Source: a virus (Duplodnaviria > Caudoviricetes). Taken from it: a DNA stretch of 64,000 nucleotides. Below the pieces are notes generated by a model, which did not search any database, had not been told where the DNA came from, and saw nothing but the letters and a program-made list of their open reading frames with translations. The position numbers and the translations under genes were made by a program. The stretch is from IMG/VR virus record IMGVR_UViG_3300042307_000844; one strand, written 5' to 3'. Shown here piece by piece: positions 36,883 to 63,561 of this stretch; the stretch's first letter is position 1, and every line of letters starts with the position of its first letter.

Positions 36883-37783
36883 ATTGAAATTGTATTTAAC
36901 CATGACAACCGTAATTGTCAATCATCTTCTGTTTGAATTCATCATCAAATCCACTGTAACCAACCAGAACGGGCAATCCCCCATTATCCCTGAAGTTACG
37001 CATGAGATTGACCAACATTTTCACATACACCCTACATTGGGAACGCTCTTTCCAAACATTCCCAATGAGGGAAGCAAGGGGATAATACCAACCCCACCCA
37101 TTCATGTGCCATTCGGCAATCTCCTCATGGATCATCTTGATTTGTAGATCGTATTGTTGTTTGCCATTGATCATGGGTTCCACGATCTTTTTCTCTTCTT
37201 CCGTGATACCCTTGTAACCTTGGGATTCAATTCTGGTAAAAATATCGATCTGTTCCCTTGTCGGTTCCGTAAAATCGGGGTAATAATTCCTATCCACGAA
37301 ATGAGCAATCGTCTTGGCGATTTCGTAATGTTTCTTTTTTAATTTCATAATTATAGACAATTTGCTGCCATCCTTGCCATGTTCCATCCTTCCGTTGTCG
37401 GCTCAAACCGCGCACACACGATATGACCGTCTCCCAGAATGTGGGGATCAAGCTTTCCAAAGTATTTCACATCAATGTGGCAACGCAATAATAATAATTT
37501 ATCTCCCTTGAATGTGGTGCATCCCTCGTAATTCACCAGAAGGATCATTCCCCTTTCCAACTTTTCCTCTTTCAAAATTTTGAATTTGAAAGGGTTTGGA
37601 TTGGGGGCATAAATCTTTTCCTTTGGAATCTTTAGAAAATTATTGATCGTTGAACTCGATGCCGTTTGGGGCATTGAGTTCCTGTCACTGCTTTTTGATA
37701 ATCCGATTGCCAATCCCATGATGGATTCATTGTAGCTTAGTTTTTAAGAATGTCAAGGGGGGATTATTTAGCTAAATAAGAGT

Positions 37784-38640
37784 ATGAACAAGGATGATTT
37801 ATCCCTACAACAAATCTACCAAGAAATGGCTCTTTCCAATCTACAAAAGATTGGCAAATGGGATGATAAGAAAAATCGCCATGGTTATGACAAAGCATCC
37901 ATTGGGATTTTGTCGTCTCCTGCTGGTTTGAAAAAGCTGGAACAAAAATTTAATAATATTGGTAATTGGGATTTTAATTTATATTTCGTCAAGAATCCCA
38001 ATGCTTGGAAATATGCCGAACAGGGAAAAGTAACCGCTGGTCAACTTCAAGCTAGATTGGGATTGGAAGTTGGAAAAGATTTCCCCAACCGAAAGGCGAT
38101 CAGATCACGGTCTTCTTCACAAACAATGCCGCTGCTGAGAAAGTTCCCCTGACCCCATGGACAATCGCTCACAGAATTGGTCATGCTTTTGCAAAAACCT
38201 TTCGCAATGGTATTGGTTCGAGTAGGGTGGAATGGAATAATGATCAAATTTCAAGAATCCTAAGTAAAATATTGGGATGTTATGGAATCCAAAAAGGGTG
38301 GTCTGGATTGAGATATTCCGAAGAATATTATATTCGGGACTTGTATCAAAAGATTGGAAAATTCCGCAGTGCGAGAATGAGTAAGTTAATAAGACCCAAT
38401 GAATTCTACCACGAAGCATTTGCCTATTGGTTACTACATGATGGGGAACTTGATTTTAACGATCCTCCCCAATATCTGACATCATCCAATAAAAAAGCAT
38501 GGGGTAATCCAACGGGAAGAAATTACATGTTAAAGGATGAGGACGGTGCCACAGAACTTGTTCACCAATTGAGATATGCTCTGGAGGAAATGTTTCATAC
38601 CATGGTAGGGGAACATATGGGAGAAATATCCATCATGTGA
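37784..38640 (+). pseudogene. Single late gene interrupted by a 1-nt frameshift near 38088 (HRxxH zincin-like motif)
   Basis: ORF 37784 continues in the -1 frame as PKGDQITVFFTNN...TPWTIAHRIGHAF and runs into ORF 38227. Confidence 0.7.
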
Positions 38641-38730
38641 CGATAACCTTCCCTTGCACGATAAACACCGGAACTTTATCGTGCGGAATCAGGGTATTGA
38701 CAAAACCAAATATTCTGTTAAGATAAAGCC

Positions 38731-39252
38731 ATGATAAACAAAATCTTCATCGATCTGGACGAGTGTATGCTACATTCGATGCTTCGTAAACCCAACCAAG
38801 AACATATCCAATTCACTCTGGAGAATGATGACAACACCTATTACACCGTCATCCGTCCCTGCGCCCAAGGATTGATTGATTTTGCACGGGAACTTGTGGG
38901 AAAGGATAACGTGTATATCCTAACCACATCCACCACCGATTACGCCAATATGATCAATGAAAAGGCGGGATGGGGATTTGAGAGGGATCATATCATTGCC
39001 AGAGAGGAGATTAAAAGACACCTGATACCCACGGCTTATGGCGGAAGCGCATACATCGAGAAAGAAGGGATTGCTCACAAGGACAACGTTCTCATCGACA
39101 ATCTCCCTTATCGGGAAAACATGGGTAAAGTCACCCTGATTGGAATTAAGGAAGATCGCTATCTGAAGGTGAAAGATTACTGGGGAGTAAACGGGATTGA
39201 AAATTGGTTTGAGGAGGATGTGAGGGAATTCCTGAAGGAAAAAATGGTATGA
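38731..39252 (+). CDS. HAD/NIF-family phosphatase
   Basis: IFIDLDECMLHS (DxD), IRP, VLIDN. Confidence 0.8.
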   Translation: MINKIFIDLDECMLHSMLRKPNQEHIQFTLENDDNTYYTVIRPCAQGLIDFARELVGKDNVYILTTSTTDYANMINEKAGWGFERDHIIAREEIKRHLIPTAYGGSAYIEKEGIAHKDNVLIDNLPYRENMGKVTLIGIKEDRYLKVKDYWGVNGIENWFEEDVREFLKEKMV

Positions 39253-40144
39253 CAAACGAAGAATTAATTAAGAAATGGGAAGCGGTTCTGGATTATACGG
39301 ATGGGGAGACTCCTGCTTTGAACGAATTTCAAAGGTTATACAGAGCAACATTGATGGAAAATTGTGAGTTGGATTATTTTAAATACGGGAATTATCCTGA
39401 CCAAGCCCTGTTCGAAATGATTGGCGAAATACGGAGAACAGGTAAGCTACTCAACTCTCCATACGAATAATAATATGAACACACTGACACCAAGAATGAA
39501 AGAGGCATGGGAAAGCTCATCGAGAACGGCTGATGGGTTTTATTCAACCACAACTCCTATGAGTGTTTATGCTAGAATCTGCTATGAAGAAGGATGCAAA
39601 CTGGAAAACGAACTCGCCGCCGTTACCGCACAGCGCGACATGCTGGCGGAGGCTTTGGGAAGACTAGAAAAAACAGCAGGTTTGCCAGCATTGCAGGATG
39701 ACCCAGCAAGAGTTCAAGCACGACAAGCCCTCCAATCCCTAACCCCGAAGGAAGAACCATGACCCTAGAACAACAAAGAATTGCCATCGCGGAAGAATCC
39801 GGCAGAGAATAACGAAATCACCATATTGCACGGAGGAGTTCCGGTAGATATCGGAAGTATTTGGGAAAATCGAGAAAAATATAATAAAAAAATTTTTTTC
39901 AATGGGGGGGAATTTCGATTTTTTATAGAAAAAAAATAAAAATTTATATGTCATATTTTTTCAAATGGTAATTTTTATATTTTTTATAAAAATAATTTTA
40001 GCCATGGCACCCCACCCCATACCCCCCCATCCCTAGTTTTTAAAGCAAATCGAAGTAGCCCCCCCCTAACAGTTAGATATGGCATATCTAACAGAAAGCA
40101 TTTATATATCATTTGCATATCTAACAGATCATATATCATGACAC

Positions 40145-40188
40145 AAAAAAAGCCCCTTGGCATACCTTCAAGAGATATGCCAAGGGGC
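40145..40188 (-). terminator. Strong intrinsic terminator closing the cassette array
   Basis: 13-bp stem GCCCCTTGGCATA/TATGCCAAGGGGC plus T7. Confidence 0.9.
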
Positions 40189-43100
40189 GAGGGGATCAGG
40201 CGAAGTCGGCAAGGAACTCTTTCAGGGTGCTGCCGTTGACCGTGACAGTCTCACCGTCATAACAATCAACTTGTGCGTAGAACGTGAAGGCTCCCCGCTT
40301 GCGGGACATGTAAACGGTTTCGGAATCTTGCGCGTTCCAACGAAACCCCTTCTTTTCAAGGACGGTGACAACGGCAACGAATTGTGGTAATGTGGTGGTA
40401 TTCATGGTAGTAGCATCTTACCCTAGTTTTTATAGGGTGATGATCTCCGCATCCTTCAGAGTGGCGGCGAACGCTTGCGCTTCCTCCAAGGTAGCGTAGC
40501 GGGAGAAGCCGAAGGCATCGCAAACCTTGAACTTCTTTGCGTCCTCCTTGGCGCGATAGGCATCGAAGGCTGCGGCTTCTGCGCGTTGTGCTTCCTCCGA
40601 TGGAGTGCAGCGTCCGGTGAAGTCATACTCAGGTGTCAGGTATCTCATGGTAGTAGCATCTTACCCTAGTTTTTATTCTCCACAGGCTTTCAGGAAAGTG
40701 TCAATCAGTCGCAACCATGCAACATCATCTCGTCCTCATTCATCACTTCATCCTCACTCTCAACATCACGAACAGCGAGGGCAAACGCTTGTGCGTAATC
40801 CATTCCATCCCCTAGTCCACGGTGGATGAAGTTTTCGCCGGAGAAATTCCAATGCCCGATCTCAACTCGAACCTTGGCGAACCTTGCACAAGCCCAATGA
40901 GGTTGGACATCCTTGGAGATGACAGTGAAGGTTTCTTTGTAGCGTGGGGAATAATAGGTGGTGGTCATGGTGGTGTTGATGGTGTTGGTCACAAGGGCAT
41001 CTTACCCTAGTTTTTAAACGCTAGGACGTTGAGCGTGTCGGATGCGCTCCCCCCGTTTTGATCATGCTTCGTAAGCCATCCACGTTCCCGCGTCATATGG
41101 CTCCGCATACAGCCCCAAGGACTTCAGGGCTTTCTGGACTTCAGGATGCACCTGCTCGTCGTGGTAGCAGTCGAAGAAGGGCATTCCATCCGTGTGAAGA
41201 TTCCCTTCTTGGCGAAACCAGATGCCGCCTTCCTCCCCATCCCATTCGGTGGTGGATACGGCTTTGATCTTGGGGAACAACTCATTCAGCTTGGCGATTT
41301 TGTTTTTCATGGTGAGGCTATCTTAGGCTAGTTTTTAAAAGGGGGATCGAACCCCTTTCGCTTATCAGATCAGGCTGAAGACCAGCAACCAGCTTGGACT
41401 ACCGTCCGGGCCGTGACCGTCAGACTCCACACGCTTACCCGTAGGAGTCTTGCAAACTCCATCCATTCCCCACCGTTCCAAGGAGGACATCGATGGGGCT
41501 TTGAATGCGCTTGTGATACGCACCTGAAGCGGTTCGGGATGCGCTGGCGAGTGAACAAGGCAACGGCTGTCCTTGCCCTCGATGAAGGAGACGGGCAAGC
41601 CCTTGGCAAGTGTGGAACCGTCTTTGAGTAGGATGTCTTTTTGTGTTTTCATGGTAGTAGGATTCTAGGCTAGTTTTTAACCCTCGTTGTTATAGGTGGT
41701 TGCGTGAGACTTCTTTGTAAAGGCGCGGTATCCGCCACCCACCCGCACAAGGTAACGGTAGTTTGGGTGAGGATTGTCCTTGGCGTTATTGTCAAACGTG
41801 GTGATACCGTTCTCAATGGAAAGGTCAGCATCCATGTCAATCTCATAGGATTGAATGAACACGTTCGGGAACTCTTCGGATTTGTATCGGGTGATCATGG
41901 TGAGGCTATTTTGTGCTAGTTTTTATTCGCGTTTTCCCAGAGGGTTTTGATTTCCCATTTGTCCCATATGATTTGATCTTCATCGGTGACATCGTTCCCC
42001 ACGTAGAGAACGGTTTTCCCAAGCTTTGCGGGACGGGTTCCGGTTCCGGGTCGTCCATACAAGCCAGAGGTTTCCCCACAGTAAAGCGTATGGGTTGCGC
42101 CTTGTGCCTTTGACCAGTCACAAGGTGCGCCCCCATAGACTTCATGGGTCTTGCCATAACTCTTTTCACGGACTCCCGTGATGGAGGTTTTACGGGCGCG
42201 GAGGATGTCTTCCAATGGGTAGTTGCTCATGGTGCAATCAGTCTAGGCTAGTTTTTATCAGGCGTATTCTGCTCCGATCAATTCGTTACCCCAGCGAACG
42301 GGGCGACGAGCGAAATTTGAGATGGCAATTGCCTCATCCCTTGTGATGGCATAGGCAAGGACTTGTCCGCTGGCGGTGAATAACATATCGTTCATGGTGC
42401 AATCAGTCTAGGCTAGTTTTTAAAACCACAGATAAAGGAAAAACAGGAGAAGGGCGAAAGGCCACAAGCCATAGGCAAGCAAGCCGACAATGGCGAGGAT
42501 AAAAATGAGTTCTTTCATGTTAGTTTTTAAATGGTTTGCCCCTCCCCGGAACCACCCGGAGAGGGGACTTTTACCATGTTACCCCACGAAAGAGAAACCC
42601 GCTTGGGCGATTGCGCCCCGAACCATGCCTTGTTGCTTTGAAGTTGTGACGCTGTAGCGGTCAGGATTGACCCAGAAACCGCCTTCCACACGCTTGGCAA
42701 GGGGGAAGTGGTAGCCATAGCTGTAAAGGGTGTCCCCTTCGATGAACATGCTCTTCAGGCTATTCTTGCCCTTGGTTGCGCCGGATACGAATGCTTTAAC
42801 GATTTGTTTGTTGGTCATGGTGGTGTGTGTTGTTGGTGTTGGTTACGAGATCAGTCTAGGCTAGTTTTTATCCAACCGTTACCGTTGTCCCAAAGGGAAG
42901 GTGCGCGGTGAATGGAAAGACCTTGGCAATGTCCACCTTGCCATCGCTGGAAAGGGTGAACTTGGAATGGCGGGTGTTTCCGACAGTGATGGAGACGAGT
43001 ATCAGTTTCATGGTGAGGCTATTTTGGTTTAGTTTTTATGCGATGGAGTCGATGAATGCCTTGGCTTCCGTGGTTGTCAAGGTGTGTCCGATCTTCCGCA

Positions 43101-45632
43101 TGTCAGGGGAATAGATGTCAAATCCATCCCCGATCATGCCCGACTTAATGATTGTATGTGTTTTGTATTTCATGGTGCAGCTATCTTACGCTAGTTTTTA
43201 AGGGGATTGAACCCTTAGGTTTGTTTGATTAACGGCCATTCAAAACCATCTTAATGGCTTTCACGGTGTCGGGCTTCCACCCGTAGCAACGGGCATCCGT
43301 CTCCAGATTCATGGCGACTCCGAAAGGCATCCCCTTTCCTTGTTGACCAAAGGTGAAGTTCTCCACCGCGATACGTTTGGCCTTTGGATACTTGGCCATT
43401 GCTTTCTCGACTGCTTGTGTGTGTTCGTTCATGGTAATGTGATGTTAGTCTAGTTTTTAAGCAAGGCGGGACAACCAGACTTCGCTCGCCTTTGGCAATC
43501 CCCTCTCAGCAATCGCACCGTCCCGCATGACTTCCTTTGTCATGGCTTTTCTTGCGCTTTGAAGGGCTTTGATTTGAGCCAAGGAAGGGGCGCGATAGCT
43601 TGGGAAAACCGCTTGAATCGCCTTCTCTTCCGCTTGCAAGTTGCGGTGATTCTCTTCCGCGCTCTTGAAGGAATCAACATAGGGCTTAAATGTAAGTAAA
43701 CGCTTACCTTTCACCTTTTCCCCGTCCTTAAAGAGATTGTAGCATCCTACGCCAAGGGGAACGATGTTCGCTTCACGGGCGGGGACGATCTTTTCGATTT
43801 CAGGTATTATATCAGATATATGTTTCATGGTAGTAGCAGTTTACGCTAGTTTTTAAAAGGGGGATTGAACCCCTTTCGGGGTTGGTTTAATATCCGGCAA
43901 ACTTGAATTTCACCTCTCCGAACATATCGTCTTCGAAGTAAAACCAGCCACCCTTAAAGGTTATTTCCTGATGCTCCCAAAGGATAGGGAAATCGGTGGA
44001 TACCTCATCGAAAAGGATGAAATGGGGAGGAGTTCCAAACTCATCGGCGGGGTGATATTCAAATTGTCCCAGAACGATGTTGCCATCGACATAGGTTTCA
44101 ACTGCGATGGGGGCGGTGCTTGTTAGTTGTATTTTCATAACGAGACGATCTTACTCTAGTTTTTATCCAATCAGGATGAACAGGATGATGGGGGTGAACG
44201 CGAACAGGAAGAACGCAGCGAGGGTGTCAAGGATGAGTTGTTTCATGGTGCAGCTATCTTAATCTAGTTTTTAAGAGAAGAGTCTGTCCACATGGCGAAC
44301 AATCCAAGGCTGGTTTCTGTCCTTCTCGATGGCAGCAAAGATTTCCTTGCCCTTGTGCATCACCCGGACAGTCCCGGCTTGCCAGTCCTTTTCCACGGGC
44401 AGTCCCGCGCTTTCCAGAGCTTTTACCATTGCTTTAACGTGTTCTTTTGTAAGTAATTTGGTCATGGTTAAATCTTAGTCTAGTTTTTATTCCTCTTCTT
44501 CCTCTTCTTCCTCGTCCTCTTCTTCTTCCTCGATGAATCCTTCGCGCTCGCAAAGGTCTTGAACATCGGCTTCCGACATGTAGGAGCAGAAGGCACTGAT
44601 CACGGTATCCTTATCAAGAATACCCTCTTCGATCATTTCAAGCAGTTGGTTTGTGTATTGTCTGGTCATGGTGTTATCTTAATCTAGTTTTTAAACGATC
44701 ACATATTCCCCGCGCTCCAATAGAACCCCCACAGGATCATCCTTTCGCTCATGGATAAAAATCAATCCTTTTTCCTTCCAATCGGGTTGATTGGTGGCAT
44801 GGGAGAATCCATAGGTCTTGCGAACATCAAGAACAATATCAGTTCCCAACAGCTTGTAATTATGTAGTGGCTTTGCTTTCATGGTGAGGCTATCTTACGC
44901 TAGTTTTTATCGCTTCAAATTCATTTGAATATTTTCGCTCATCCGCATTCACCCTTGCCATTTCAGCAAGGACAAAATCCTCGACAAGTTGCGTTTGCTC
45001 TCCCGTGATAATGCCTTGTTTGTAAAGGTTGTATGCAAGGAACTCAAAGGTCGTGGTGAGCTTTCCAACAAGATATGGGTAACAGATAGGTGCTTCGTTC
45101 ATAGTGACAATATCTTAGGCTAGTTTTTAAATGGTATCACAACCCGCCTTCGGTTATGTTCAGATGTTGAATAGGTTGAGGATCTCAACTTTCATGTTTT
45201 CCAGATACGCATCCATGTGTTCCGCATCGTATTCCATGGAGACTTCCATCTCAAAGTAATTGGAGATTTCATTTTGATATTGCAGAATGATATCTGCGAT
45301 TTTTTCTTTCATGCTGTCAGTGTTTTGTGGCGTGTTCATGGTGACAATATCTTAGGCTAGTTTTTAAATGAATTGGGCTACTACTGTGGAGCTTCCTACC
45401 AATTCTTCCTTGAAAAAGCAGTCATTTCTATCAGAATTCCATCCACTGAAAAGGAACTTTCGCCCCTCGTAGGTGAGAACTTTCTTACTAATTTTCTTTA
45501 CATCATCCCATCCGTTAGGGACTTCGATATAAAGCCATCCACGCCCATCGGTGGAAACACGGTAATCTGCTTTGATTTCTTTCGGGTTAATGGTGATGTT
45601 GGACATGGCTAAATCTTAATCTAGTTTTTAAA

Positions 45633-45707
45633 TGGTGGAGCGTGTAGGAATCGAACCTACATTGGAGGTGTAGAAAACCTCAGTCCTATCCGTTGAACGA
45701 ACGCTCC
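45633..45707 (-). tRNA. tRNA-Arg(UCU)
   Basis: GAGGT-TTTCTAC-ACCTC; GGAGCGT/ACGCTCC-A-CCA. Confidence 0.93.
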
Positions 45708-45730
45708 GATTTTGTGTTAGTTTTTAAGAG

Positions 45731-45806
45731 TGGTGCGCCCGAATGGATTTGAACCATTGACCCGCCGATTATGAGTCGGATGCTCTAACCACTGAGCTAC
45801 AAGCGC
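45731..45806 (-). tRNA. tRNA with CAU anticodon, probably Ile2 (lysidine type)
   Basis: TAGCTCAGTGGTTAGAGCA..CGACTCATAATCG resembles bacterial ileX-type tRNAs; CCA. Confidence 0.85.
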
Positions 45807-45810
45807 ATTT

Positions 45811-45826
45811 TGTTCCACGTGGAACA
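45811..45826. promoter_or_regulatory. parS-type palindrome TGTTCCACGTGGAACA
   Basis: Perfect 16-bp palindrome matching the chromosomal parS consensus, intergenic between two tRNAs. Confidence 0.8.
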
Positions 45827-45834
45827 TTGAAAGG

Positions 45835-45917
45835 TGCTTCGGAAGGGACTTGAACCCTTACGCCATTACTGGCAACGGATTTTAAGTCCGTAGTGTCTGC
45901 CATTCCACCACCAAAGC
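45835..45917 (-). tRNA. tRNA-Leu(UAA)
   Basis: ACGGA-CTTAAAA-TCCGT, long variable arm, incomplete CCA. Confidence 0.92.
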
Positions 45918-46638
45918 ATGAGACTTTATTTAACGATTCCGTTGTGATAGTCAATCATGTCTTGGATATCGGATTCGGTCATTGTTTCGTTCATGGTGCT
46001 ATTTTGGTTTAGTTTTTATCAGTGTCCCATAGCAACCTTGAATCCATATTGGTAATATCCACCAGTATCCAATTCGGAAATAATTACGTCTTTCGTCCAC
46101 ACACCGTTCCATTCCATGTGATAGACTTGTCCTAACGTCATTATTCTAAATTTTGTCGTTATCATAGCTTTATTCTGCGCTAGTTTTTATCGTGTTCCTT
46201 TTGCGATTTCAGCATGATGATCGGCTTGATACTTTCCGGCGCATATTGTGATTGTGCCTTGAAAAATCCCACCCAATCCCCGAATTTGTCGATCAGCTTT
46301 TGCTTTTGCTCGTCGGTGATGAAGTCGCCTTTCATATACATTCCCGCTTTTGAATTGTCCTTGTTTCGCATGATTCCGCTTTCATGATATCGAAATCCGA
46401 TATTGCAAGCGAAGGAAATAAAGTCTTATTCCGTTGGTTTTCTTTTCATGTCAAAATCTTACGCTAGTTTTTAAAACCAATTGCCTCCATCCTTTCGTAT
46501 TCCCCTATCCCAAAATCTTAGCCAAGGCTAAGTTTCTTAGTCCTAACATACTTTCTTAGCAGGGACTTAGATTGTTTTTCATGGCTAAGAAACTTAGCCT
46601 GTACTAAGTTTTTTAGTCTTGACTAATAACTATCCCTA

Positions 46639-47019
46639 TCAGTCTTTAATCCTTAATTGTTCTACCTTGATTCCCATCTTATCAGCAATTTCTTGCAATG
46701 TCATTTCAACCACTTTTGGGCGTTTGTCAAATAAAACTCCATAGGAGTTTTCCCGATAGATTTCATTGCCCCTTGAATCGTATTCACTTTTACTCCAATA
46801 ACCAGTGGAGTCTTCCCGATAGATTTCATTGCCCCTTGAATCGTATTCACTTTTACCCCAATAACCAGTGGAGTCTTCCCAATAGATTGTATTGCCATTG
46901 GTATCCCGTTCTCTTTTGCTCCAAGAACCAGTGGAGGTTTCATAATAGATTGTATTGCCATTCTTATCTTTGATGACGAATGGAAATGTTGTTACTTTTA
47001 ATTGTTTGGCGATTGTCAT
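46639..47019 (-). CDS. Repeat protein (YxEDSTGYWxKxEYDSRGNEI units)
   Basis: Near-identical 60-bp tandem DNA repeats at ~46750-46930. Confidence 0.8.
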   Translation of the reverse strand: MTIAKQLKVTTFPFVIKDKNGNTIYYETSTGSWSKRERDTNGNTIYWEDSTGYWGKSEYDSRGNEIYREDSTGYWSKSEYDSRGNEIYRENSYGVLFDKRPKVVEMTLQEIADKMGIKVEQLRIKD

Positions 47020-48218
47020 AGTGCTATTCTGCTTTAGTTTTTAAGAGAGAAATCCGATCCCCATCAATCCATATAAACCCCAGCCTTGGAAAGTTAGTCT
47101 CCTCAAAGTTGCCACCATTCCACCAGTGTTTCCTCGGGAATTTCCATCCTTTTCGCAGCATTGGCCATGCGTTTGCATTCCCTGTATTGCTGGGGAGTCA
47201 TCATGGAATCATCGAATTCCTCCCGCCCATTGCTTACATCGGATGCAAAGCAGAAAAGGATATCTTTCCCATCGGGTTCCTTATTGTTTTGTGTATTGTA
47301 AATACTAGCGAAGTAATCGAAGGATACGCTGTTTCTTCCCTTGGAAACCCTCACCTTGTAATGGTTATGTATTCCCATTGACCACGTTGGTTGCTTGGTA
47401 TTGGAAAGGGTTGTCTTGATTGTGATTCCGTTGATTGTGTCTTGCATGTTCTTATTATCGTTTAGTTTTTAAACCAATCCCACAAGTCCTTCGGATTCCT
47501 TAATATCCTTGAAGTCTTGAAGGTGTTTTTCTTTGAATTCATGAAATACTTGGAATGATTCTGCTTGTTCTTTTGAATACACTCCCCCTTTGGAAACACG
47601 CAAACCGCTTTCCTCATGGATGATGCTTGCGTGTCTTCCCCAAGATAGGGTTTCAGTTTTCAATTTGAATCCGATTTTCTTTAATTCTTTTCTTAATTGA
47701 TTTAATGTCATGGTGCTATTCTGCTTTAGTTTTTAATACTTCCTCTCCACCTTGGGGCAAATCTTCCGCAGGGCGGTTTCAATATGGGAATCGTTCATAT
47801 ACTCATAAAGCTCATTGATAAAATTGTATTGCTTTGTGGAAAATAGGATATCCCACACGAATCTCTTTTGCAGGTCTTTCACCCTATCGGCACGGGGAAA
47901 TTGTCCTTGTTCATAAAGGGATTTGATATGTTCTATTCCCCCGCATCTTTCCGCTTCCGTATTGATAATGGTTTCCAGCTTTTGGTAATCCTCCCGTTTG
48001 ATCTTCATGGCTTTATTATCCTCTAGTTTTTAACCTTCGTAAAGTTCCTTGCCTTTTTCAATGATCGCTTTCATTCCGCTTGGGGAAAGATTGTAATCCC
48101 CTGCCATCTTTTCAATTGTCAGATAATTATTAACCCAATCCAGATACGTTTTGATTGTCCATGCATCCAAAGCTTGTTTTGCTTGTGTTTCGGTCATGTC
48201 CAAATCTTAATCTAGTTT

Positions 48219-48782
48219 TTAAAGGAATGGATTGGGAATCATTTCCCGTATCATCTCACAGTGTTCTAACCTTGCTGCTGACGCTGCTGACCGTGCTGTT
48301 GACCATGCTGCTGACTCTGCTGACCATGCTGCTGACGCTGCTGCTGACGCTGCTGACTCTGCTGACCATGCTGCTGACCATGCTGCTGACGCTGCTGCTG
48401 ACGCTGCTGACTCTGCTGACCATGCTGCTGACCATGCTGCTGACGCTGCTGCTGACGCTGCTGCTGACGCTGCTGCTGACGCTGCTGACCGTGTTTCTTC
48501 GCAAGGGTTTTCAATCCATGCCCTTGCAGCTTCAATTGCAAGTTTTGGGCGATTTTCCCCTTTAGGTATATTGACAAGACATTTTTCCGCAAATGCTATG
48601 GACAATCTCACTGATTGTTCCTTTTCAAGAGGTTTGCATTTTTCAAGCATCCAAAAAAGCCATTCTGGTTCCTCACAAGCATCCCAAACTTGGGACATGG
48701 TTTCGTGGCTTAGAGCAAATTCTCGCCCTTCCTCACACATCTCATTCGGGGAGTATTTGTTACAAAATTCAGTCGTGTTCAT
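48219..48782 (-). CDS. Protein with an Ala/Ser/Trp low-complexity repeat tail (SAASAAWSAAES)
   Basis: Motif promoter upstream; GCTGCTGAC-type microsatellite-like repeats at 48270-48490. Confidence 0.8.
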   Translation of the reverse strand: MNTTEFCNKYSPNEMCEEGREFALSHETMSQVWDACEEPEWLFWMLEKCKPLEKEQSVRLSIAFAEKCLVNIPKGENRPKLAIEAARAWIENPCEETRSAASAAASAAASAAASAAWSAAWSAESAASAAASAAWSAAWSAESAASAAASAAWSAESAAWSTARSAASAARLEHCEMIREMIPNPFL

Positions 48783-53800: not shown

Positions 53801-56800
53801 CCCCGTTTTTGAAAATATAAATATATTTCACTTCCTTGTGGAAACCTTTCTTTTCCGCGAAGCTGTCCCAATAATCACAGTCAATTATATGTTCCTTGAC
53901 CCATGCTTTGGCTTCCTTGATTGTCAGGTGTTCCATGGGAGTTCCGATATGGTATTTCTCCCCATCAATCTCTTCAATACCTACGGTTTCAATTGTCATG
54001 GCGTAATTATGGTTTAGTTTTTATTCAGCAGTCCATCCCGAATCGCTTGCGTGGTTTCCTTGTTCCACCCATACAAACGGGCATCCATGTCCAGATTCAT
54101 CAGGGCATTGGGAATGTTTCCGCTATAGTGCGCGGTTCCCAGAAAGTTCCACACAGCGGTTTCGTTCACCCTTGCGCGATTGGCAAGCTTTTCAATCTCT
54201 TCCCTCGGTATCTTGTTCATGGTCGCAATATTAATTTAGTTTTTAAGATTTCCAGTTCCTTTCGAATCTCTGCGATCTTTACCCGATTTTTAATAAAGTT
54301 ATCCACGATATACATGGGAACTTTACTTTTAATTAAAACCTGAGAGGTTTCATCCATTGACAACATCCCCGCAAGTTTGATTTCCAATCGATCAATCTTT
54401 TCCGATAGTGTTTCTCTTTTGAATATGTTCATATGTGTATTATGGTTTAGTTTTTAAGATTCTATCTCTCTTCATGTTCAAAGGGAGGAGACACGTAAAA
54501 ATTATCATACCAGAGAGAATAATTTTCGTGATAAACGGGACTGAGAGGATTGTTGGACAACCTAAATTCCATGTCGCTTTTTGCAGAGATCATTAAAGCG
54601 CACAAACCACTATCGTTTTTAGACTCCCACGCTCTTATCATGGATTTGATTTTACTTTCCAGAACACAAATCCTTTCGTGTTGTGCGGATGAATATTGTC
54701 CATACCTATTCAATTTCCTTTTCATGATAGGATTGTGTGCTAGTTTTTAAAGGACTTCAATTCCCCGCGCCATCAGATATCCCGTCATAACACCTTGGAT
54801 ATATGATTGCGTTTGCTGGTATGTCCCATAATCATCGGGAACATAATATTCCGATATCATATCACAATAGAAATATCTATCATCACAACGAAAATTGTCA
54901 GTGGAGAATCCCGCACCCCAATTATAATTGAGGAATCGTTCAATCAATTCTTGCCGATATGGTTCCATGTCTTCTTCAAACGCATGGTCGTATTTGATAT
55001 ATATAATTTCTTTTTGCATATCATACATCGTGTGAGAAATCAATTGCAATATCCCATAGAACGTGATCGGAATCATCCAACCATTCCTCATGTCCCAGCG
55101 CATCTGCACAACATTGTGCTGCTTCCGTCCAATTGGAAAAGTCTTGCATATTAATGGCGAACCATTTTTCAATTTGTTTTTCCTCTGTCATGTCGTAATT
55201 GTGTTCTATTTTTTATGCGCCACCGGAGCATCCCCACAATCGTTCTCTTGAACGTAGCAAGCTCCCACATCCTGAAAAACATCCAGAAATTTCTGGATCA
55301 GTTCCACGCTATTCCCCCACATTCCAAGAGAGAAAATGATTCCCCGCTTGCCAAGTTCCCCGTGGCATTCCTCAAAATCTTCCGTGTCCATATGGACAAA
55401 CATTTGCCGTTCGTCAACCCCATCCTTGAAACGGAAGATATAGAAATTCCAGTGAGGATCATATTCAGGCTTTACAAATACATTGGAATTGCTTACAAAT
55501 GTATTTGTAGCTTCTCCTTGAATAGTTCTGATTACATCAAGCACCCTCTTACCAATCTCCCGAACATCAATGTTGTCGGTAACTACATATCCTTTAGTGT
55601 CGCATCCCATGGTTGTATTATGGTTTAGTTTTTAAAAGCAATAATCTTATTCCAAGATTCTCCCACCTTGTGATTCCATTTCCATGCCAACTTATCAACC
55701 CGACGATTCCAGTATTTCCACCTACGGAAATTCCCACGTATCAGGCGATTTTCATTTTTGATTGCTTGGGATAACTTTTCTCTCGTAGTCATGGCTTGTT
55801 AGCGATAAGAGATTCGAGAGCTACCACCTGCTCGTGGACTTCGCATGTTGCCAAATTGTAGTCTGGTTTTGTGCCGTGCTCGTATCCGCCGTTATAGAGG
55901 CAGACGAGCGACATACACTCTCCATTCGCGTGTCGGTTGCAGCGAGATTTCAAATCGCTAACAAGGCGGTGGAGGACAACAGCCTCCCGTTGAGTCTCAG
56001 GTGTATTCATAGATTTTCGGCGGGAGGCTGTGCCTCACCTTGGTCGATATTGGTTTAGTTTTTAAATAGAAATTCCTGCTCATTGTCGATGGATTCCTTA
56101 CACTCTTCCATGTCATCAAACTTGAGAAAACGTTCTTGCGTATCGGAATAATACTCAAACATTCCAGAGGGGAATAGAATAGTGATACCTTTGCCGTTGT
56201 GTTCAATGTAATCAGTCATGGCTTTATTATCGTTTAGTTTTTAAGATCACCGATCAGTCCTTGCGCTTGCCCAGACCTTGACAATCTCTCCACTTTTCAA
56301 CTTAACTTCCACGCTGTTAATGGTTGCCGAATCCTCAATGACTTTCTCAATATCCTTGGAAAATTGATAGGATGGGCAAGATGAATATCCGATTTGCCAT
56401 TGTTCATCCAATTCTTGGCATTCCTCTCGCTCAATTTCCTCCCCATCCCTTGTCCCTTCGGAGATACGCCATTCCGCCACAATATCCATGGGAATGCTAT
56501 AATCACCTTGGCATCGCATGAACAAAGGATAGGCATAACCTCCCCGCACATCACATCCCGTATGGGCATAGCATACCATGATAGCTTCGTCATCGTAAAT
56601 CCAATCCCGCTTCACATTATCAAAATGGGAATATACTTCCCATACATAGTCCTGAGATAAGTCATTCTCATTATTATATGTATTGTCCCTTGCAAGTTGT
56701 GTTAATCCCAACACTTCGGTTGCAAAGGTTTTCCCTGCTTCAAACCATGATAAATCGGAATTCTCTTCCAATGCCGCCCATGCTTCAAATTGCTCTTGGA

Positions 56801-57496
56801 TATCGAAATCCACTTCACAAGTTTCAGCAAGGAAAAGAGCGGTTTCAATGGTTGCGGTAACATCGTTACCATATACATCGATCCTCACCATCGGTTGCTC
56901 TTCGGAGATTGGAGGCTTTTCATAATGCCTTCCGTAGTAGTCTCCACTATCCAACATGGACTTGCCTGTATTGAATCGGAATGCCTTGGCGATTGTCTCT
57001 TGGTTCTTGGTCATGTCGTAATTGTGTTCTAGTTTTTAATGCGTCTTGGTCTTGTCGGATTTGTCGGGCGCGGTTCATCCACATCATTGACATTGCGAAA
57101 GATGTTCCTGTATGCCGCCACAATCACCCCCATGGGCAATCCTGAAACTTCCGCCATCTTTTCCATGCTCACATCTTCCAGAATGTATCGGGCGGAACCA
57201 ATGGCTTGCCAACGATCATCGTCAGTCATGTCCTCATAGGGCTTGATGTTTTCAATGTCCATGTCGTAATTATTGTTTAGTTTTTATGGGAGGAGATAGT
57301 AGCATTCCCCATCCTCATCCCTCCAGTATCCCCCGAACAGACTTTGATCCTTACACCATTCAAAGCGTATCATCATCCCCTTGCATTGCTTTTCCGTTCC
57401 CCGGAAATATTCGGGAAGATCAAGCATGTCCGTTCCCTTGTGCAGATGTTCCAGAGTGTGTTTAACGATCTTCATGATAGGAGTATGCTCTAGTTT

Positions 57497-57982
57497 TTAT
57501 ACCGCTTTAATCTCACCCTTACAGCACATGCAAGTGTATGTTTTACCCTCCATGATCCGATTCACAATCGTTTTGGATACAGTATGTTGACGGCATCCAC
57601 AAGCGAAGAGATATTTCTTGACCTTGCGTGTCCTCTCAATGCCTGTAACATCGTAGCTATGGCATCGTGGCATGGTTTCCCCCGTAAGCACACGGCAAAA
57701 GTGACCCCATTCCCTCCCATGTGGCTTGGAATGGGGATAATGCTTGAACTGTAGGATGTGTGCCATTTCATGGGGGACCGTGCTGGACAAGAATTCGTCC
57801 ATGTGCCTTTCAGCAAGAGCGAGATTGAATCGCATCTTGTGGCTTCTACGGAAAGCCTGTCCAGCGGTAGCACCCTTGAGAGAAAAATCAATCACACACT
57901 TGGGGAATTCGTAACCCTTAATTCGGGCAACTTCCGCAAATTGTTGGATTGTCTGGTGAATTCGGTTCTTGGTATCGGTCAT
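57497..57982 (-). CDS. SprT-like zinc metalloprotease
   Basis: AG.A...RFN...TVPHEMAH...HG.EW...C.C motifs. Confidence 0.88.
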   Translation of the reverse strand: MTDTKNRIHQTIQQFAEVARIKGYEFPKCVIDFSLKGATAGQAFRRSHKMRFNLALAERHMDEFLSSTVPHEMAHILQFKHYPHSKPHGREWGHFCRVLTGETMPRCHSYDVTGIERTRKVKKYLFACGCRQHTVSKTIVNRIMEGKTYTCMCCKGEIKAV

Positions 57983-60947
57983 GGTGGGATTATCTGCTAG
58001 TTTTTATACGCAGAGATAGACTCGCTTGCTTGATCCATCCTCATTGGAGTAGATTGTGATATATGGGAACATGCGAACACCATCCCTAACTTCACTCTTA
58101 TCAAACATCAGATCATATTCCAGATCGGATAAGTCCTTGGGAAGCATATCTTCGTATTCCCATTCCACAGTATATAGATCATAGTCTTTCATAATATTAA
58201 AGGTTCCTGATTACCGTATATCAGGATCGGGCGGGAGCTTCCGCTATGCTTGGCTATGGAAACATATCAATCAATCACTTCTTCAGTGGAGAGAACGTTT
58301 TCCATCTTGATCGTGAAGCATTCAGGCTTTTCCTTTTCCCCCGTCAGTTTCTTGGCTTCCGATGGAGTGAGATATGTGGCAAAGATATCTTTTGATATCT
58401 CATTACCATTGGCAAAATATCGCACAACAGGAATCGAATCAGTTGGATACATGCGAAGATAATAATTGGTATTGCCTTCCTTTTCATATTTGATTAGGTA
58501 GGGAAAGTAGGCCCACTCCCCGAAAGGAAGGGATTGAACTTCCCCACGTTCGCCGGATTCGATCCCAGCCTTGACACTGGAAAGATTGGCGAAATCAAGA
58601 CCAGAACGAATAATTGAAGTGGTGCGTTTTTCCAGAACAACATCCTTGAATGAGGCTGCTGGTTTTGGATTGCTTTTCCATGCCGCTCGCATGAATTGAC
58701 CCTTTCCTTTGAAAAAGTTGGAAAGGATTTCGTTGGCAGTCAATGACTGAATGTTTGTAGTGATGTTCATGTTTGTAGTGTAGTCTAGTTTTTAATAAAA
58801 AATGTATCCCAGCCCAAGACTATCTTGTTGGAGATTTCTGAGAACGTTTTTCAATTCCTTTACACCCGTAGTATCATAGTCCTCTCCCATGTCCTTGGCA
58901 TCAAGAACCATTTCAAAGAAACATTCCCCGATTGCTCCCATGAGATCGTCCTTACTATCGCACGTAATGGCGGTTGTTGTCTTCCCATACATTCCCCGTC
59001 CACTGTAATCTTCGTAAAGGGATAGGTCGTTTCCGTAATCAATAATCATTTCTGCGATGTCTTTGTTCATGTGCGTATTATGTTTTATTTTTTAAATAAT
59101 ATCAATGTGTGATTTTTCGCAATCCACTGTGATCATGGCAGAGAATTGATCGACATTATGATCAATCTCCACAATTCCATCCTTAAAGTCCTCCGCAAAA
59201 AATGTATAGAATTCCCGATTTTCAGCATTCATCAAATCGGAGATATTGTTGTGAGCATCCGCCACATCAGGATAGATATCAACCGGAACATACATTAGAA
59301 CCGGAATCGCGTGGTATTGTTTTGTCATAGTATAAGTATCGTTTAGTTTTTAATCCAGATTCGGAACCCATAGATATGCTATCAATAAAGCAACACCCCA
59401 TAGAAAGTTTCCTGATATCATCAGCCAACACATTGTAATGAAAATAATTCCAGTTATCATAATTAAAATTCCTCCCCTTCTTCGGTGTAGATATCCGCAT
59501 CTTCATCCAGATAATCCATGATACATTCCTCACTTGTGAGATATGCGTATTCGTTCTCCAGAGTATCGCAGAACATCTTGGCGACTTGATCAAATGCCTT
59601 GCGAACAGTTCTCCCATCAAGCAGTTCCTTCCATACGCATTCCACGATGTCCTCGTCAAAGCATACACCCGTGAATCCGCACACACCGGGGAATTCCATG
59701 TCCTTGAAATGTTTGGGACGCGCATAGCCATTGTCGATCAGAACCCGCAGAAACCATGCCAGAGCGCGATTGCCTTCCAAGTCTTTAACGTAATAATTAG
59801 CAACTTTCACCTTCCAATTTTGGCAATAGCTACCAAAGGAATAGTCAACCAATCGCAGATTGCAAGCTTCACAGACTGCTTTCAGGGAATCCAGCATCTC
59901 TTGGGAAGTGAATTCCAAAAGACATTCATCGTTCTCCGCATCCCTGATCTTGTTGGTGATTACCCGTGCTTGCGCTTCGGGAGATAACTCCTTGTAGGAG
60001 TAGAGTTGTGTGGTGATTGTTGTCATGGTTTGATTGTGGTTTAGTTTTTAAAAGCGAATGCTTCAGGATACGAGTTCCATGCGGGATTCTTTTTCCGTAG
60101 GATTTCCAATTCTTCCAATGTCGGCTTGTTGTCCTGCTTTGCAATCCAATCAATGGCATGGTATCGTTCAGCGATTTTCCGTTGGGATTGGTAGAACATT
60201 TGTTGTTGCGTCTGCATGTTCAAATATTAATCTAGTTTTTATTCCTCCAACCCCAAAGCTTTCAACATGTCTTTTTTTGTTTTCAGTTTATTTGCGTATG
60301 ATATATCAACATCACATCTAGTAGCTGTCATATCCTCCCAAACCTGAATTCCCCTTGAACGATTCGTCTTACCTTTGGTAATGAAAATACAATCGTGACA
60401 ATGGGATACCCTATAATTGTTTTGCTCCGCAATTTCAATCACTGCTAGTATCTTTTTAGAGATATTTTTCATATCCAAATCTTAATCTAGTTTTTAAAAG
60501 TGGTCGGGCGTAATGCTATTCCCGTTCCTTCCGTCTCAGCATTTTTCCCGTCCGAGCGGGATTAATCGGAAGCTGTTTTTGACACTCAAGCCTCTACCAG
60601 AGCATGGGAAAATTCTTTCTCCGTGATATCAGCATCCCCATACTTTTCCATCCATTCCATGGCTTCTGATTCGCTTAGGGCGATGATATCAGAAGAACCT
60701 CCCCGCCCGTTGTTTCCAACTGGACATGAATATTTGCTCATGGCATTACCAGAACCATATAGAAAGTAATTCCCCTTCTTGGTTTTGTAAAGCGATTCAG
60801 TGTAATGATTGAAATCCGTTGAATAATAATTATTGGAATAATAATCAATTTCAGTTGCGGTTTCCGTGTTATAGACTTTTCCTTCGATTACTTTTTTCAT
60901 ATGTTTCTTTCTCGTTACGACCAAATCTTAATCTAGTTTTTAAAAGG

Positions 60948-61051
60948 TTGGGGCGGGAGGACTTGAACCTCCATCGCTGACTCGTCTGGCAGACAGTGGA
61001 TATCATGTCTGTTGCGACCACATGCCGACATACCATTAGTCGCACACCCCA
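60948..61051 (-). ncRNA. tRNA-like RNA (104 nt) with an expanded anticodon/variable region
   Basis: Acceptor TGGGGTG/CGCCCCA, D arm CGAC-TAATGGTAT-GTCG, T arm GGAGG-TTCAAGT-CCTCC; 52 nt between the D and T arms. Confidence 0.7.
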
Positions 61052-61404
61052 AATCTATCATCCAGCAGTAAGAACCAGATCACCCCGCTTGATAAGCTTC
61101 TCACGCTCCACGGGATTGACAAGAGCAGATACAAAGCTTCTCTTGTTCTCCATACCCAAGCCGAATTCAGCGGAGTATGCCTTACGTCCAAGGTCTTTGT
61201 TCGATCCACCAGTGCCATTGCCCCTAGTCCAGAATTCCGTCGCACCTTGGGCAAGGTAGAACATGTTCCCGCCGCGATTACCTGCACCATTCCATGCCAG
61301 AGAGACGATTTCCGTCATCTGATTCAGAGAACGGGTGGAAAGCTTCTCATCGCTCTTGGTCTTGTCTTCATGTTGTCAGTGTAGTCTAGTTTTTAAAGAG
61401 CATG

Positions 61405-62037
61405 TTAGTAAGCCCATTTAGCATCCCCAAGGATTTCTGTTGAGTCTTGCCACCAGTCATCCCATTGTTCGTTTGTAGCGACATTCCAATCAGGTATGCG
61501 CTCCACTGCACCTTTCGGAGTAAGACTGATTGGCAACCATTTCAAACGGTTGTTTGGATAGATTGCAATTTGTCCATTTGACAACTTCACAACATTCCCC
61601 TCCTTGTGTTCTTCAAGAAGTTCCACATCGCCAATGTCAATCATCCCAGCAGCTTGTCCTTCTGGAAGGAAATCAATGGTGAACCAGTAATGTCCAGTCA
61701 TGGGGGCGCAACCTTTCCCCATATTCACCAACATAGGGACATCTGCAAGCTGACTTTTCTGCCAAACCTCGATACTACCCGTTAAACACTCCCACATTTG
61801 CACTTTATGAAGCGGAAGATTAACTTGTTCACCATTCGGCTCATAGTGATAGACACATTGAGGGGGAATCTTGTCGAAACAAGCAGCAAATCGATCTACC
61901 CAAACTTGAAAGCAGAACGGACGATTCCGCATTGCTCTGACACTGAGTAACCACGCAGGTTCAAAATCAGTCTCATTACCACCGAATGCATCGGCGCGAA
62001 TATAGACTCTGGCTTTAGGTATATTAACGTTTCTCAT
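61405..62037 (-). CDS. Conserved hypothetical phage protein
   Basis: Long ORF; start at MRNVNIP. Confidence 0.7.
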   Translation of the reverse strand: MRNVNIPKARVYIRADAFGGNETDFEPAWLLSVRAMRNRPFCFQVWVDRFAACFDKIPPQCVYHYEPNGEQVNLPLHKVQMWECLTGSIEVWQKSQLADVPMLVNMGKGCAPMTGHYWFTIDFLPEGQAAGMIDIGDVELLEEHKEGNVVKLSNGQIAIYPNNRLKWLPISLTPKGAVERIPDWNVATNEQWDDWWQDSTEILGDAKWAY

Positions 62038-63561
62038 AATTTTATCCTTCGATGCAATGCTCATCAAATTTCGCAATCGCCTCATCCAGATTGATGGGAA
62101 GGAAAGATGGCTTGCTGCCGTTCTTCATATCCGCAATGGGATTTGCCCATTGATCCGATTCTCTTCCCAAATACCAGTAAGCTTTCTTGTTCCTTGCGAT
62201 GACCCTACCAGAGAATAGATTACCAGTAGGAATCCCATCCGTCTCCACAACGAATCGGGTGTTCTTTTCCTTGTCAATGTCCAGAGGAATGAACATGTAG
62301 TATTGTTTGGTCATGGCGTTATTGTGTTCTAGTTTTTATCCAGCAAATCCAGCACCCATTGAAGGCGGAATTGTGCGGGGAAACGATCAGAAATATATTG
62401 AAGATTGATAAGGATTGATTCTTCCGATTCATATCCATAGGTATCCACTCCCTTTCTATTATCTAAAGGCATCCACCCCCTCATTTGATCATACCAATTC
62501 AGATAGCGAAGTTCAGCAGCAATCTCTCCCCTGTGTGGTTTCAGGATTTCAATAGCTTTGGGGAGTGTCATGTCCTTCAAACCATAAAAATTTGAAAATA
62601 CCCGTCTAAGAATTTCATAGCGATGCTCTCGCTTCCTTTGGATTCTGTTGATTGTTGTTCTCTTCATGGCTCAAGTATCGTCTAGTTTTTAACCCCTTTG
62701 GGTAATCTTACCATCCGCATCCCAAGCTTCCACTCTCCGATAGCTAAGACTTGCCTCAATAGCATCCATCGTTTGTTCCACATAATGGGAAAGCTTGCAG
62801 GTTTCCAGATAGTTCCATCTTTTGGTGAGTTCTTCATCTGTCCACTCCTCAAATTTATCTACGAAATCTTCCATGGGTTGATTATAATTTAGTTTTTATC
62901 CAAACTTCGCGCCACATAATCCTCAATCCCATCGCTTGGATCGTCCACGCATACCAGAGAATTGTTCAGCATTGCCTTGATCTGATTCATGTTCAGGGCT
63001 TGCATATCATCCTCTACTCCCAACCACCCTTCAACATATTCTCGAACTTGTTTGATTGTAAATGTTTTATTCGGCATGAGAACAGTGTGTGCTATTTTTT
63101 AATTCACATATCGTAATAGATAGTGTCGTTCGCATCACCAAACAACCTCTCCATCAAACGGTTCTTCCATAGCCTGTCCGTTTCGTTTCCAACCTCTCTC
63201 ACTACGTTTCCAATGATATCCCTAAACGATGGATACTCTTCGTAATGCCCGATATAATCAGAATAACAACCATCCCAATAGATATCAATTTTCAATCCTT
63301 TTTTAAGTTGTCTTTCCTTAACCGTGAAACCAAGTTCTTCCAATTGTTCTTTTGTCAATGCTTTCATATTATTTTGATTGAGGAATCATCATATTGTGAG
63401 ATACTTCTTTAATATCGCCATCGTGTTCAACATAAAGAGTTGAAGCATCGGGATTACAATCCTGCATAAATAGACATGCTTCGGTTATTTCAACAACTCC
63501 TAGATTCCTATGTGTTGCTTTACCCAACTTAAAATCATTATCAAATTTAATTTCTTTCATA

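Follow-up and report, generated by a model that had tools for sequence, protein, structure and literature searches.

A 64,000-nt stretch of phage DNA (IMG/VR record IMGVR_UViG_3300042307_000844) carries many copies of a short box, AAAAACTAR, that stand at set distances ahead of small genes. We call this whole stretch the window, and box coordinates are window positions. The left part of the window holds T4-type core genes, which encode gp23, gp20, a helicase, a ribonucleotide reductase and homing endonucleases. The window also contains 12 tRNA genes and a long array of small genes that bears nearly all of the boxes.

601-2067: gp23, major capsid protein (PF07068 at 1e-83)
13546-15369: gp20, portal protein, a T4-type core gene
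40199-62897, minus strand: array of ~75 small genes with 71 box copies

No near-identical phage was found when 20 kb was compared by megablast with 50,697 phage records. No isolate has a gp23 protein more than 34% identical to that of the window, and the nearest isolates are cyanomyoviruses. DNA of the window is present in 20 lake-water metagenome runs. The phage is an uncultured, distant T4-like lake phage. WhiB, a marker of actinophages, and psbA, a marker of cyanophages, are both absent from its relatives.

The box occurs 76 times as an exact match in the window, compared with 2.10 matches expected from shuffled sequences, in which the largest count was 5. All except three of the copies (73 of 76) lie on the minus strand at 37737-62897. 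An earlier note on this DNA had described the layout AAAAACTAR-NN-hexamer, and the counts make a stronger case for it than the note did. The motif is real. The note gave no strand for it; the entire array is oriented along the minus strand. Written out in full, the layout is W-T-AAAAACTA-R-NN-nAnnAT. If the base 7 nt after the hexamer is numbered +1, the aligned copies show W at -25, T at -24 (100%), AAAAACTA at -23 to -16, R at -15, A or C at -14 and any base at -13. The conserved element thus extends from -25 to -14, and not from -23 to -15 as first described. Upstream of -25 there is no conservation in the aligned copies, so there is no MotA box (TGCTTtA) centred near -30. The box tolerates little variation, because in the right register only four copies with one mismatch are found vs 66 exact ones. 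TAAAAACTAR is asymmetric and contains no 9-bp inverted repeat; its only short internal palindromes are CTAG and TTAA.

The hexamer, at -12 to -7, takes forms such as TAAGAT, CATAAT and GATAAT. Two of its bases do not vary. A at the second position (-11) and T at the sixth (-7), which the earlier note had singled out, are each present in 100% of the 66 aligned window copies. Position -9 is A or G, -8 is A or C, and -12 is weakly T among copies with the shorter of two spacings to the start codon. Immediately after the hexamer comes A, T or C, with no purine rule. The hexamer keeps its 2-nt gap to the box even where the ATG is distant or a tRNA gene is adjacent, which indicates that box and hexamer form one unit that is independent of the start codon.

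Among the 73 minus-strand copies, the gap from hexamer to ATG is exactly 6 nt in 46 and exactly 9 nt in 19, the two spacings that the earlier note had claimed. The extra bases of the 9-nt class are ACC, ACT, ACA, ACG or GTT. Counting 7 nt on from the hexamer, one thus reaches A in 94% of these copies and G in 5%, with C or T just before it. Both spacing classes have a purine as the seventh base and, in ~100% of copies, a pyrimidine at -1. Among the array open reading frames (ORFs) of at least 40 codons (n = 75), 59 have a box in the exact leaderless register and ~68 have a box of any kind. No Shine-Dalgarno site was found in the array genes. One example of each class is given here.

49972-49998, minus strand: 6-nt class; T 49998, box 49997-49989, NN, hexamer 49986-49981, ATG 49974-49972, predicted start at A 49974
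41308-41337, minus strand: 9-nt class; box 41336-41328, hexamer 41325-41320, predicted start at A 41313, CC, ATG 41310-41308

The two classes are unevenly distributed. The 9-nt class, with ACC-ATG, is concentrated at 40199-45400, the GC-richer (~50%) end of the array, and the 6-nt class fills 45600-62900. This pattern suggests two cassette sub-families of different origin. Eight of the 73 copies depart from the spacing rule. Four of them have long leaders of ~18-30 nt (box copies at 60941, 56063, 42869 and 41015; two of the leaders are CA-rich), one has a 7-nt gap (54244), one abuts a tRNA gene and two lack a hexamer. CA-repeat leaders of ~24-28 nt (CAACACCAACAACAC...ACC-ATG) are seen at 42818-42869 and 40968-41015 on the minus strand. 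They may be translational enhancers, unlike the leaderless majority.

A -35 signal is missing from the aligned copies, whose information content is ~0 at -36 to -30. TTGACA-type hexamers that match at least five of six positions occur in 1 of 75 window copies, and in 6 of 120 and 3 of 83 copies in two complete relatives, G001 and G002, which are described below. The TG of extended -10 promoters is also absent at -15/-14, where the bases are G or A and A (89%) or C. A generic sigma70 scan of the array returned a chance number of hits (45 vs 41.5). The rare exceptions are informative. In hybrid copies, a TTGACA lies 5 nt upstream of the box and leaves a 16-nt spacer; there is one in the window, two or three in G001 and one in G002. 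Because TTGACA is in register, the box of these copies lies within the spacer of a bona fide sigma70 promoter. The window copy has the arrangement TTGACA-N16-TACAAT with the box inside the spacer, exactly as the earlier note stated for 37719-37756, and the gene behind it encodes 122 aa (phrog_13501).

37717-37756, minus strand: hybrid promoter; TTGACA 37756-37751, 5 nt, box 37745-37737, GC, TACAAT 37734-37729, 9 nt, ATG 37719-37717

Complete relatives were analyzed in place of the full genome of the window phage, both for comparison of the boxes and for the regulator searches described below.

G001: 207 kb with terminal repeats; gp23 92% identical
G002: 198 kb; complete relative
G009: gp23 87% identical
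G005 and G006: complete genomes; gp23 75% identical
G007: complete genome, the most distant; gp23 62% identical

G001 has 118 forward and two reverse box copies, all within 7.5-70 kb; 78 of them have the 6-nt spacing and 17 the 9-nt spacing. G002 has ~60 copies, among which C is commonest at -15, and G009 has 61 forward and two reverse copies. The hexamer bases A(-11) and T(-7) are retained in 98-100% of copies in G001 and in 100% in G002. The genes that follow the boxes are of early type, including those for RNA ligase, phosphoesterases, glutaredoxin and nucleotide enzymes in G001, and ORFans plus an ArdA-like gene in the window.

In G005, G006 and G007, the window-type box is no commoner than expected by chance. 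De novo counts of k-mers at fixed offsets from ORF starts revealed other boxes in the first two of these. In G005, the box is AT-n-AAACACTA-R in the same register, with 67 copies vs six on the other strand. In G006, it is TTAATTAAAACCGAA at -28 to -14, with 54 copies vs nine and 14 invariant positions; it is followed by T(-12), A(-11), A(-9), A(-8) and T(-7), and by N6-ATG in 40 of 54 copies. The AAAAACTA, AAACACTA and TTAATTAAAACCGAA boxes are mutually exclusive between genomes.

The most distant relative, G007, uses promoters of the form TTGACn-N17-TATAAT-N6-ATG ahead of its small early genes. These lie on its minus strand, within the first ~10 kb and the last ~10 kb of the reverse complement. 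The lineage series supports the view that the hexamer is a -10 element, that leaderless genes are a family-wide trait and that the role of the -35 element has passed, in some lineages, to a strict box adjoining the -10. Three sister lineages with three boxes, plus a fourth with ordinary -35/-10 promoters, thus form a natural series on -35 replacement. The spacer between TTGACn and TATAAT in G007 has a weakly conserved AAnTTC(C) at -21 to -16, which may be the ancestral seed of the boxes in the other lineages.

Among IMG/VR contigs, 42 stretches carry the box together with a TAAGAT hexamer, and more than a dozen contigs from different metagenomes have arrays of it. The gp23 clade of this phage numbers at least 599 IMG/VR contigs. 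The earlier note had proposed that the same motif in bacterial genomes could reveal the host. A scan of 185,579 species genomes with TAAAAACTAGNNTAAGAT (box plus TAAGAT hexamer) gave 117 single matches in unrelated taxa and no genome with repeated copies, although this pattern is narrow and has low power. Scattered single matches indicate that the box with this hexamer is no repeated host feature among those genomes.

We propose that box and hexamer together are a -35-independent promoter for a sigma70-type RNA polymerase holoenzyme, which would make a leaderless mRNA, or one with a 3-nt leader, from a separate promoter for each gene. To this reading, which is drawn from DNA sequence, we assign a probability of about 0.78. 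One argument that the hexamer is a -10 element is the retention of A(-11) and T(-7) while the rest of the hexamer drifts, because these are exactly the bases that sigma70 region 2 flips out. The hybrid copies, the G007 promoters and the pyrimidine/purine pair at -1/+1 likewise favor the proposal of the earlier note that an upstream element is read instead of a -35 box.

The following sequence of events can be envisioned. A bacterial multisubunit RNA polymerase with a sigma70-family sigma factor, most likely the primary sigma of the host, would use each unit. Sigma region 2 would recognize A(-11) and T(-7) of the degenerate hexamer and so treat it as a -10 element. The -35 contact would be dropped, and the invariant box (-25 to -14), in the downstream half of the spacer, would take over its energetic and specificity role. 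Transcription would start at the purine 7 nt after the hexamer, which is the A of the ATG in the leaderless 6-nt class and the A of ACC-ATG in the 9-nt class with its 3-nt leader. At many junctions, the stop codon of the preceding gene is itself part of the box. One promoter per gene would be expected, presumably because there are no Shine-Dalgarno sites and almost no terminators, and only a 5'-terminal AUG would be translated efficiently.

Several observations weigh against this proposal. In both spacing classes the ATG has RCC in front of it, which would be just as consistent with a translation context within a 6- or 9-nt leader. At three sites (tRNA-Arg at 45707 in the window, and tRNA-Met and tRNA-Arg in G001), the hexamer ends 0-1 nt before the mature 5' end of a tRNA, with no gap at two of the sites and 1 nt at the other. 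A transcript that began 7 nt further on would lack part of the acceptor stem. It may be that such copies are not promoters for the adjacent tRNA, or else that the true start is nearer to the hexamer than we assume. Where the box is present, the hexamer matches TATAAT at 4.35 positions, vs 5.03 in G007; with so weak a hexamer, much of the binding energy must come from the box. Finally, the box is far more invariant than known contacts between polymerase and promoter spacer, yet our searches found no protein that reads it.

The tRNA-abutting copies are also the main support for a rival explanation, in which the whole 17-18-bp unit is a promoter of a phage-specified polymerase with T7-like architecture. 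Transcription would then begin right after the hexamer, giving 6- or 9-nt leaders that end in RCC-AUG and some tRNAs with mature 5' ends. Early promoters of the Thermus phage phiYS40 are reportedly read by a non-host activity. The RCC context would fit such leaders in both classes, and strict invariance coupled with switching between lineages is what promoters of phage polymerases display. We nevertheless consider this explanation very unlikely. The base right after the hexamer obeys no purine rule, whereas the seventh base is a purine preceded by a pyrimidine. The invariant A(-11) and T(-7) are a sigma70 signature, and G007 and the hybrid copies place a real -35 element in register. The profile for T7-type RNA polymerase (PF00940) gave no match in G001-G004, which is weak evidence in that it matched no control genome either. 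Among the 14 ORFs of at least 550 aa in G001, the 10 that were scanned included no polymerase family and look structural or endonuclease-like. Moreover, two tRNA-adjacent copies in G002 leave 5 and 8 nt after the hexamer, which shows that abutment is no fixed rule. If polymerase does start at the seventh base, the abutted tRNAs may be processed from read-through RNA, and the AT that ends the hexamer would then provide an A(-2)U(-1) leader context.

Read-through RNA must in any case exist, since terminators are rare in the array. Terminator-like hairpins occur there at chance level, and only a few junctions have hairpins at all (43871, 43213, 41353 and 42540-42580). In addition, the stop codon of the upstream gene lies within the box at 43 of 73 junctions, as TAA at -24 to -22 or as TAR at -17 to -15. 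Together with the fixed distance to the next AUG, these facts could be explained if the array were transcribed as a polycistronic RNA in which UAAAAACUAR acts as an endonuclease processing site, or as a termination-reinitiation signal that leads from the stop codon in the box to an AUG 14-21 nt downstream. Such a role at the RNA level would leave the invariant A and T of the hexamer, and the pyrimidine/purine pair, unexplained. The equivalent genes of G007 use ordinary -35/-10 promoters and have no box. Boxes also follow noncoding gaps, hairpins and tRNAs, where no ribosome arrives, and box and hexamer persist ahead of leaders of 18-30 nt. Thus, we regard an RNA-level role as highly improbable.

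A comparison of the window array with G001 by blastn reveals another property of the boxes. Homology blocks begin 1-6 nt before a box in 26 of 45 cases and end 8-39 nt after the next box in 24 of 45, and the order of the cassettes is permuted between the two phages. The boxes therefore mark break points of gene-cassette shuffling, like the promoter-early stem-loop (PeSL) elements of other phages. PeSLs are early-promoter motifs that flank single small genes in the hyperplastic regions of T4-like phages and serve as shuffling break points (PMC2839356, PMC4122927). As with PeSLs, a repeated promoter motif borders the shuffled single-gene modules. However, a PeSL combines a terminator hairpin with a canonical sigma70 promoter, whereas the junctions of the window usually have no hairpin and no -35 element, and the start codon is fused to the predicted start site. 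The hairpin is usually lacking because the upstream stop codon lies in the box.

These block boundaries raise the question of whether the box is mainly a stretch of homology for single-gene swaps at cassette junctions, its promoter-like appearance being secondary. There is very little chance that this is so. Recombination needs identity alone, and does not call for fixed distances to a -10-like hexamer and an ATG, nor for uniformity of strand. Furthermore, PeSL promoters themselves act as junctions (PMC2839356, PMC4122927), so a role in recombination would be an added consequence of promoter function and not an alternative to it.

If box and hexamer are a promoter, the next question is what recognizes the box. 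A sequence-specific adaptor that is encoded by the phage, possibly delivered with the virion, and co-evolves with the box has a little less than an even chance of being the reader. In its favor are the 10-14 bp that hardly ever vary, the way in which box sequences change in concert from one sister phage to the next, and the weak -10 element. Because the boxes precede early-type genes, such an adaptor would need either to arrive by injection or to be expressed from the few canonical promoters. The reader could instead be host polymerase itself, acting through the beta-prime zipper and sigma region 3, in which case the box would be an over-developed Z-element or extended -10. This possibility is favored by the resemblance of the 5 bp upstream of the hexamer to the published Z-element, and we hold it only tentatively. 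That something else reads the box seems unlikely. A specific form of the adaptor idea, which we think possible with the odds somewhat against it, is that the box docks an unrecognized phage protein, possibly injected, that holds the sigma70 holoenzyme on the spacer (-27 to -14) and replaces the contact of region 4 with the -35 element. If so, this would be a new geometry of sigma appropriation, and sister phages in the same lakes would own orthogonal promoter sets based on AAAAACTA, AAACACTA and TTAATTAAAACCGAA.

The earlier note had also pointed to a sigma factor or activator elsewhere in the genome. A profile search with sigma70 region 2 found one homologue of the late sigma factor gp55 in each complete relative, and neither a full sigma70 nor an activator was found in these genomes. 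Searches for sigma70 region 4 gave only sub-threshold noise in the complete relatives. MotA (PF09114) had no match at E<=1 in G001 and G002, and AsiA and MotCF (PF09158, PF09010) had none at E<=1 in G001, G002 and G005-G007. Subtraction yielded 47 families that are common to G001, G002, G005 and G006 and undetected in G007. The 38 that were scanned include no sigma factor or activator; they comprise enzymes, structural proteins, three YopX proteins, one weak HTH_23 match and a NIF phosphatase. Three small, fast-diverging proteins are encoded near the gp55 gene of G001 (127.2-128.5 kb), with pI values of 4.1-6.2 and no known DNA-binding family among them.

T4-type phages serve as the textbook example of how host RNA polymerase is reprogrammed step by step. 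To our knowledge, MotA and AsiA are missing from most T4-like phages of aquatic habitats, and little is understood of how these phages control their early and middle genes. The middle promoters of T4, which combine a MotA box with a sigma70 -10 element and depend on appropriation by MotA and AsiA, are the closest analogy within this group. They share with the window promoters a T4-type phage, the use (predicted in the window) of host holoenzyme, a normal -10, a phage-specific box in place of the -35 element and many copies ahead of early or delayed-early genes. Unlike the MotA box, however, the window box is unrelated in sequence, is not centred at -30 and abuts the -10 element at -25 to -14. 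The complete relatives searched have no MotA, MotCF or AsiA, and the window transcripts are predicted to be leaderless.

A phage-specific box within the spacer is found in the late promoters of phage P1, where the Lpa site lies near -22. These promoters, too, combine a -10 element with a spacer box that stands in for the -35, and they are read by a phage activator together with host polymerase. There are 11 of them, and the Lpa site is a conserved 9-bp inverted repeat (PMC10695390). In contrast, the boxes described here are asymmetric, number ~70-120 rather than 11, precede early-type rather than late genes and have predicted leaderless starts.

The Z-element is a 5-bp sequence located 4 bp upstream of the -10 element; it is contacted by the beta-prime zipper and can replace the -35 element (Yuzenkova et al. 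2011, PMC3173786). Known examples are AACCT (T7A1), AACAT (T7A2) and AATGT (lacUV5) (PMC3173786). The corresponding bases are AAACT in the window, ACACT in G005, AAACC in G006 and AAnTT in G007, and are thus alike in position and partly in sequence, the comparison being one of sequence alone. The Z-element is loose, with an effect of less than 2-fold per base, and needs a strong -10 (PMC3173786). Here, by contrast, a weak -10 accompanies 10-14 invariant bp whose sequence differs from one sister phage to another.

Extended -10 promoters (TGn at -15 to -13) are -35-independent, with extra contacts upstream of the -10. They differ from the window promoters, which have R and A/C at -15 and -14 and a conserved stretch of 10-14 bp.

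Middle and late transcripts of phiYS40 are said to be leaderless. In Deinococcus-Thermus and Actinobacteria, a TANNNT box next to the ORF is the -10 of leaderless genes and has a spacing requirement (PMC12340547). As in the window, such promoters keep a TANNNT-type -10 close to the ATG at a constant spacing, and the -35 is optional. They lack a conserved upstream box, whereas here a lineage-specific box precedes nearly every gene of a 23-kb array.

Three further promoter types were considered and rejected. For an archaeal promoter with B recognition element (BRE) and TATA box, the box is ~4-5 nt too close to the start, and gp23, gp20 and gp55 are of the bacterial T4 type. A sigma54 -24/-12 promoter would have GG and GC, which are absent, and the AAC motif of extracytoplasmic function (ECF) sigma factors has the wrong spacing. 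A string search of the literature for AAAAACTAG returned nothing relevant, and the window box was not described in the literature searched.

What is notable relative to the known kinds of promoter is the position of the box, its strictness and its switching between lineages. In this phage family, the -35 element would be replaced by a strict box fused to the -10 element, and the start site would be fused to the start codon, in ~100 genes per genome. Such units are possible orthogonal compact promoters, and they give a concrete starting point in the search for a new polymerase adaptor or a strong natural Z-element. The box rule also allows exact start calls for hundreds of ORFan genes in contigs of lake phages.

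Two other promoter classes are present in this phage. Canonical promoters of the form TTGACA-N17-hexamer-N6-ATG precede the ATGs at 4433, 5404 and 38731. T4-type late boxes, TAA[AG]TA-N5-ATG, number 17 in the window (2.4 expected) and 58 in G001 (10 expected). When the late box is aligned to the T4 sequence TATAAATA (-13 to -6), it also places the start on the A of the ATG. In box, canonical and late promoters alike, the -10-type element lies at the distance that puts the predicted start on the A of the ATG, so one distance rule applies to three classes, which fits the promoter reading of the boxes. The canonical promoter at 38731 shows that the rule holds alongside a genuine -35 element. The box promoters are not themselves late promoters of the TATAAATA type, because their hexamers differ and TAA[AG]TA forms a separate class elsewhere in the window.

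Individual sites outside the regular pattern, and neighbors of the array, are as follows.

29335-29373, plus strand: sole plus-strand copy; box and TATTAT with a 13-nt leader, and late box TAAATA 5 nt before the ATG (29371)
35309-35333, minus strand: isolated 6-nt-class box promoter outside the array; 139-aa gene at 34890-35309
38697-39252, plus strand: canonical leaderless promoter (TTGACA-N17-TAAGAT-N6-ATG) and gene for a NIF/FCP1-like HAD phosphatase (38731-39252)
40033-40041, minus strand: final box copy, lacking both hexamer and ORF; past the array terminator, with a G-rich tract after it
40152-40188, minus strand: intrinsic terminator that closes the array; 16-bp hairpin and T-run
42520-42528, minus strand: hexamer-less box, preceded by a strong GC hairpin (42540-42580); ATG 1 nt after
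45709-45725, minus strand: box and CAAAAT between tRNA-Met and tRNA-Arg; tRNA-Arg starts 2 nt on (45707)
50311-50792, minus strand: 9-nt-class box promoter and gene (50311-50766) with a weak match to ArdA-like anti-restriction proteins

Because box plus TATTAT and a late box both precede the ATG at 29371, this gene appears to have a dual promoter. The HAD phosphatase has a DxDx motif, and its promoter diverges from the end of the array. A NIF/HAD-type phosphatase is kept in all box-bearing relatives and is undetected in G007. Its canonical promoter made this gene a candidate regulator, which was rejected on the identity of its product.

The ORF that follows the hexamer-less box (42518-42420) has 32 codons and is very hydrophobic. 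The same arrangement of hairpin, hexamer-less box and hydrophobic ORF (42420-42580) recurs in G001 at ~64.2 kb.

Nearly all tRNA genes of the phage (33808-36882, 45633-45917 and 50798-50875) are preceded by A-T at -2/-1, and several have a TTGACA/TTGACT-N16-17-TAAATA promoter a few nucleotides upstream. All of the phage tRNAs decode codons that end in A or T, which hints at a host with a higher GC content than the phage.

Minus-strand hairpins at 43871, 43213 and 41353, just upstream of the boxes at 43854, 43199 and 41336, are built like the T-arm of a tRNA. They have a G/C-rich stem of 4-5 bp and a loop of 6-7 nt (TTCGATC, TTCAAT), two of the three are followed by a T-run, and all lie outside tRNA genes. 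A fourth such hairpin is located at 33741, beyond tRNA-Pro. These structures may be what is left of tRNAs, or may act as tRNA-like terminators or processing signals.

The left terminus of G001 (1-300) opens with head-to-tail copies of a 57-bp unit. In the window, the sequence GCATATCTAACAG is present three times at 40069-40128, with two direct copies (40082 and 40115) and one inverted copy (40069-40081). These copies sit between the array terminator (40152-40188) and the last box (40041), beyond which lie the G-rich tract and AT-rich repeats (39875-40000). The arrangement resembles a control region of operator or origin type. The box with its G-rich tract is conserved in G001 near 67.5 kb.

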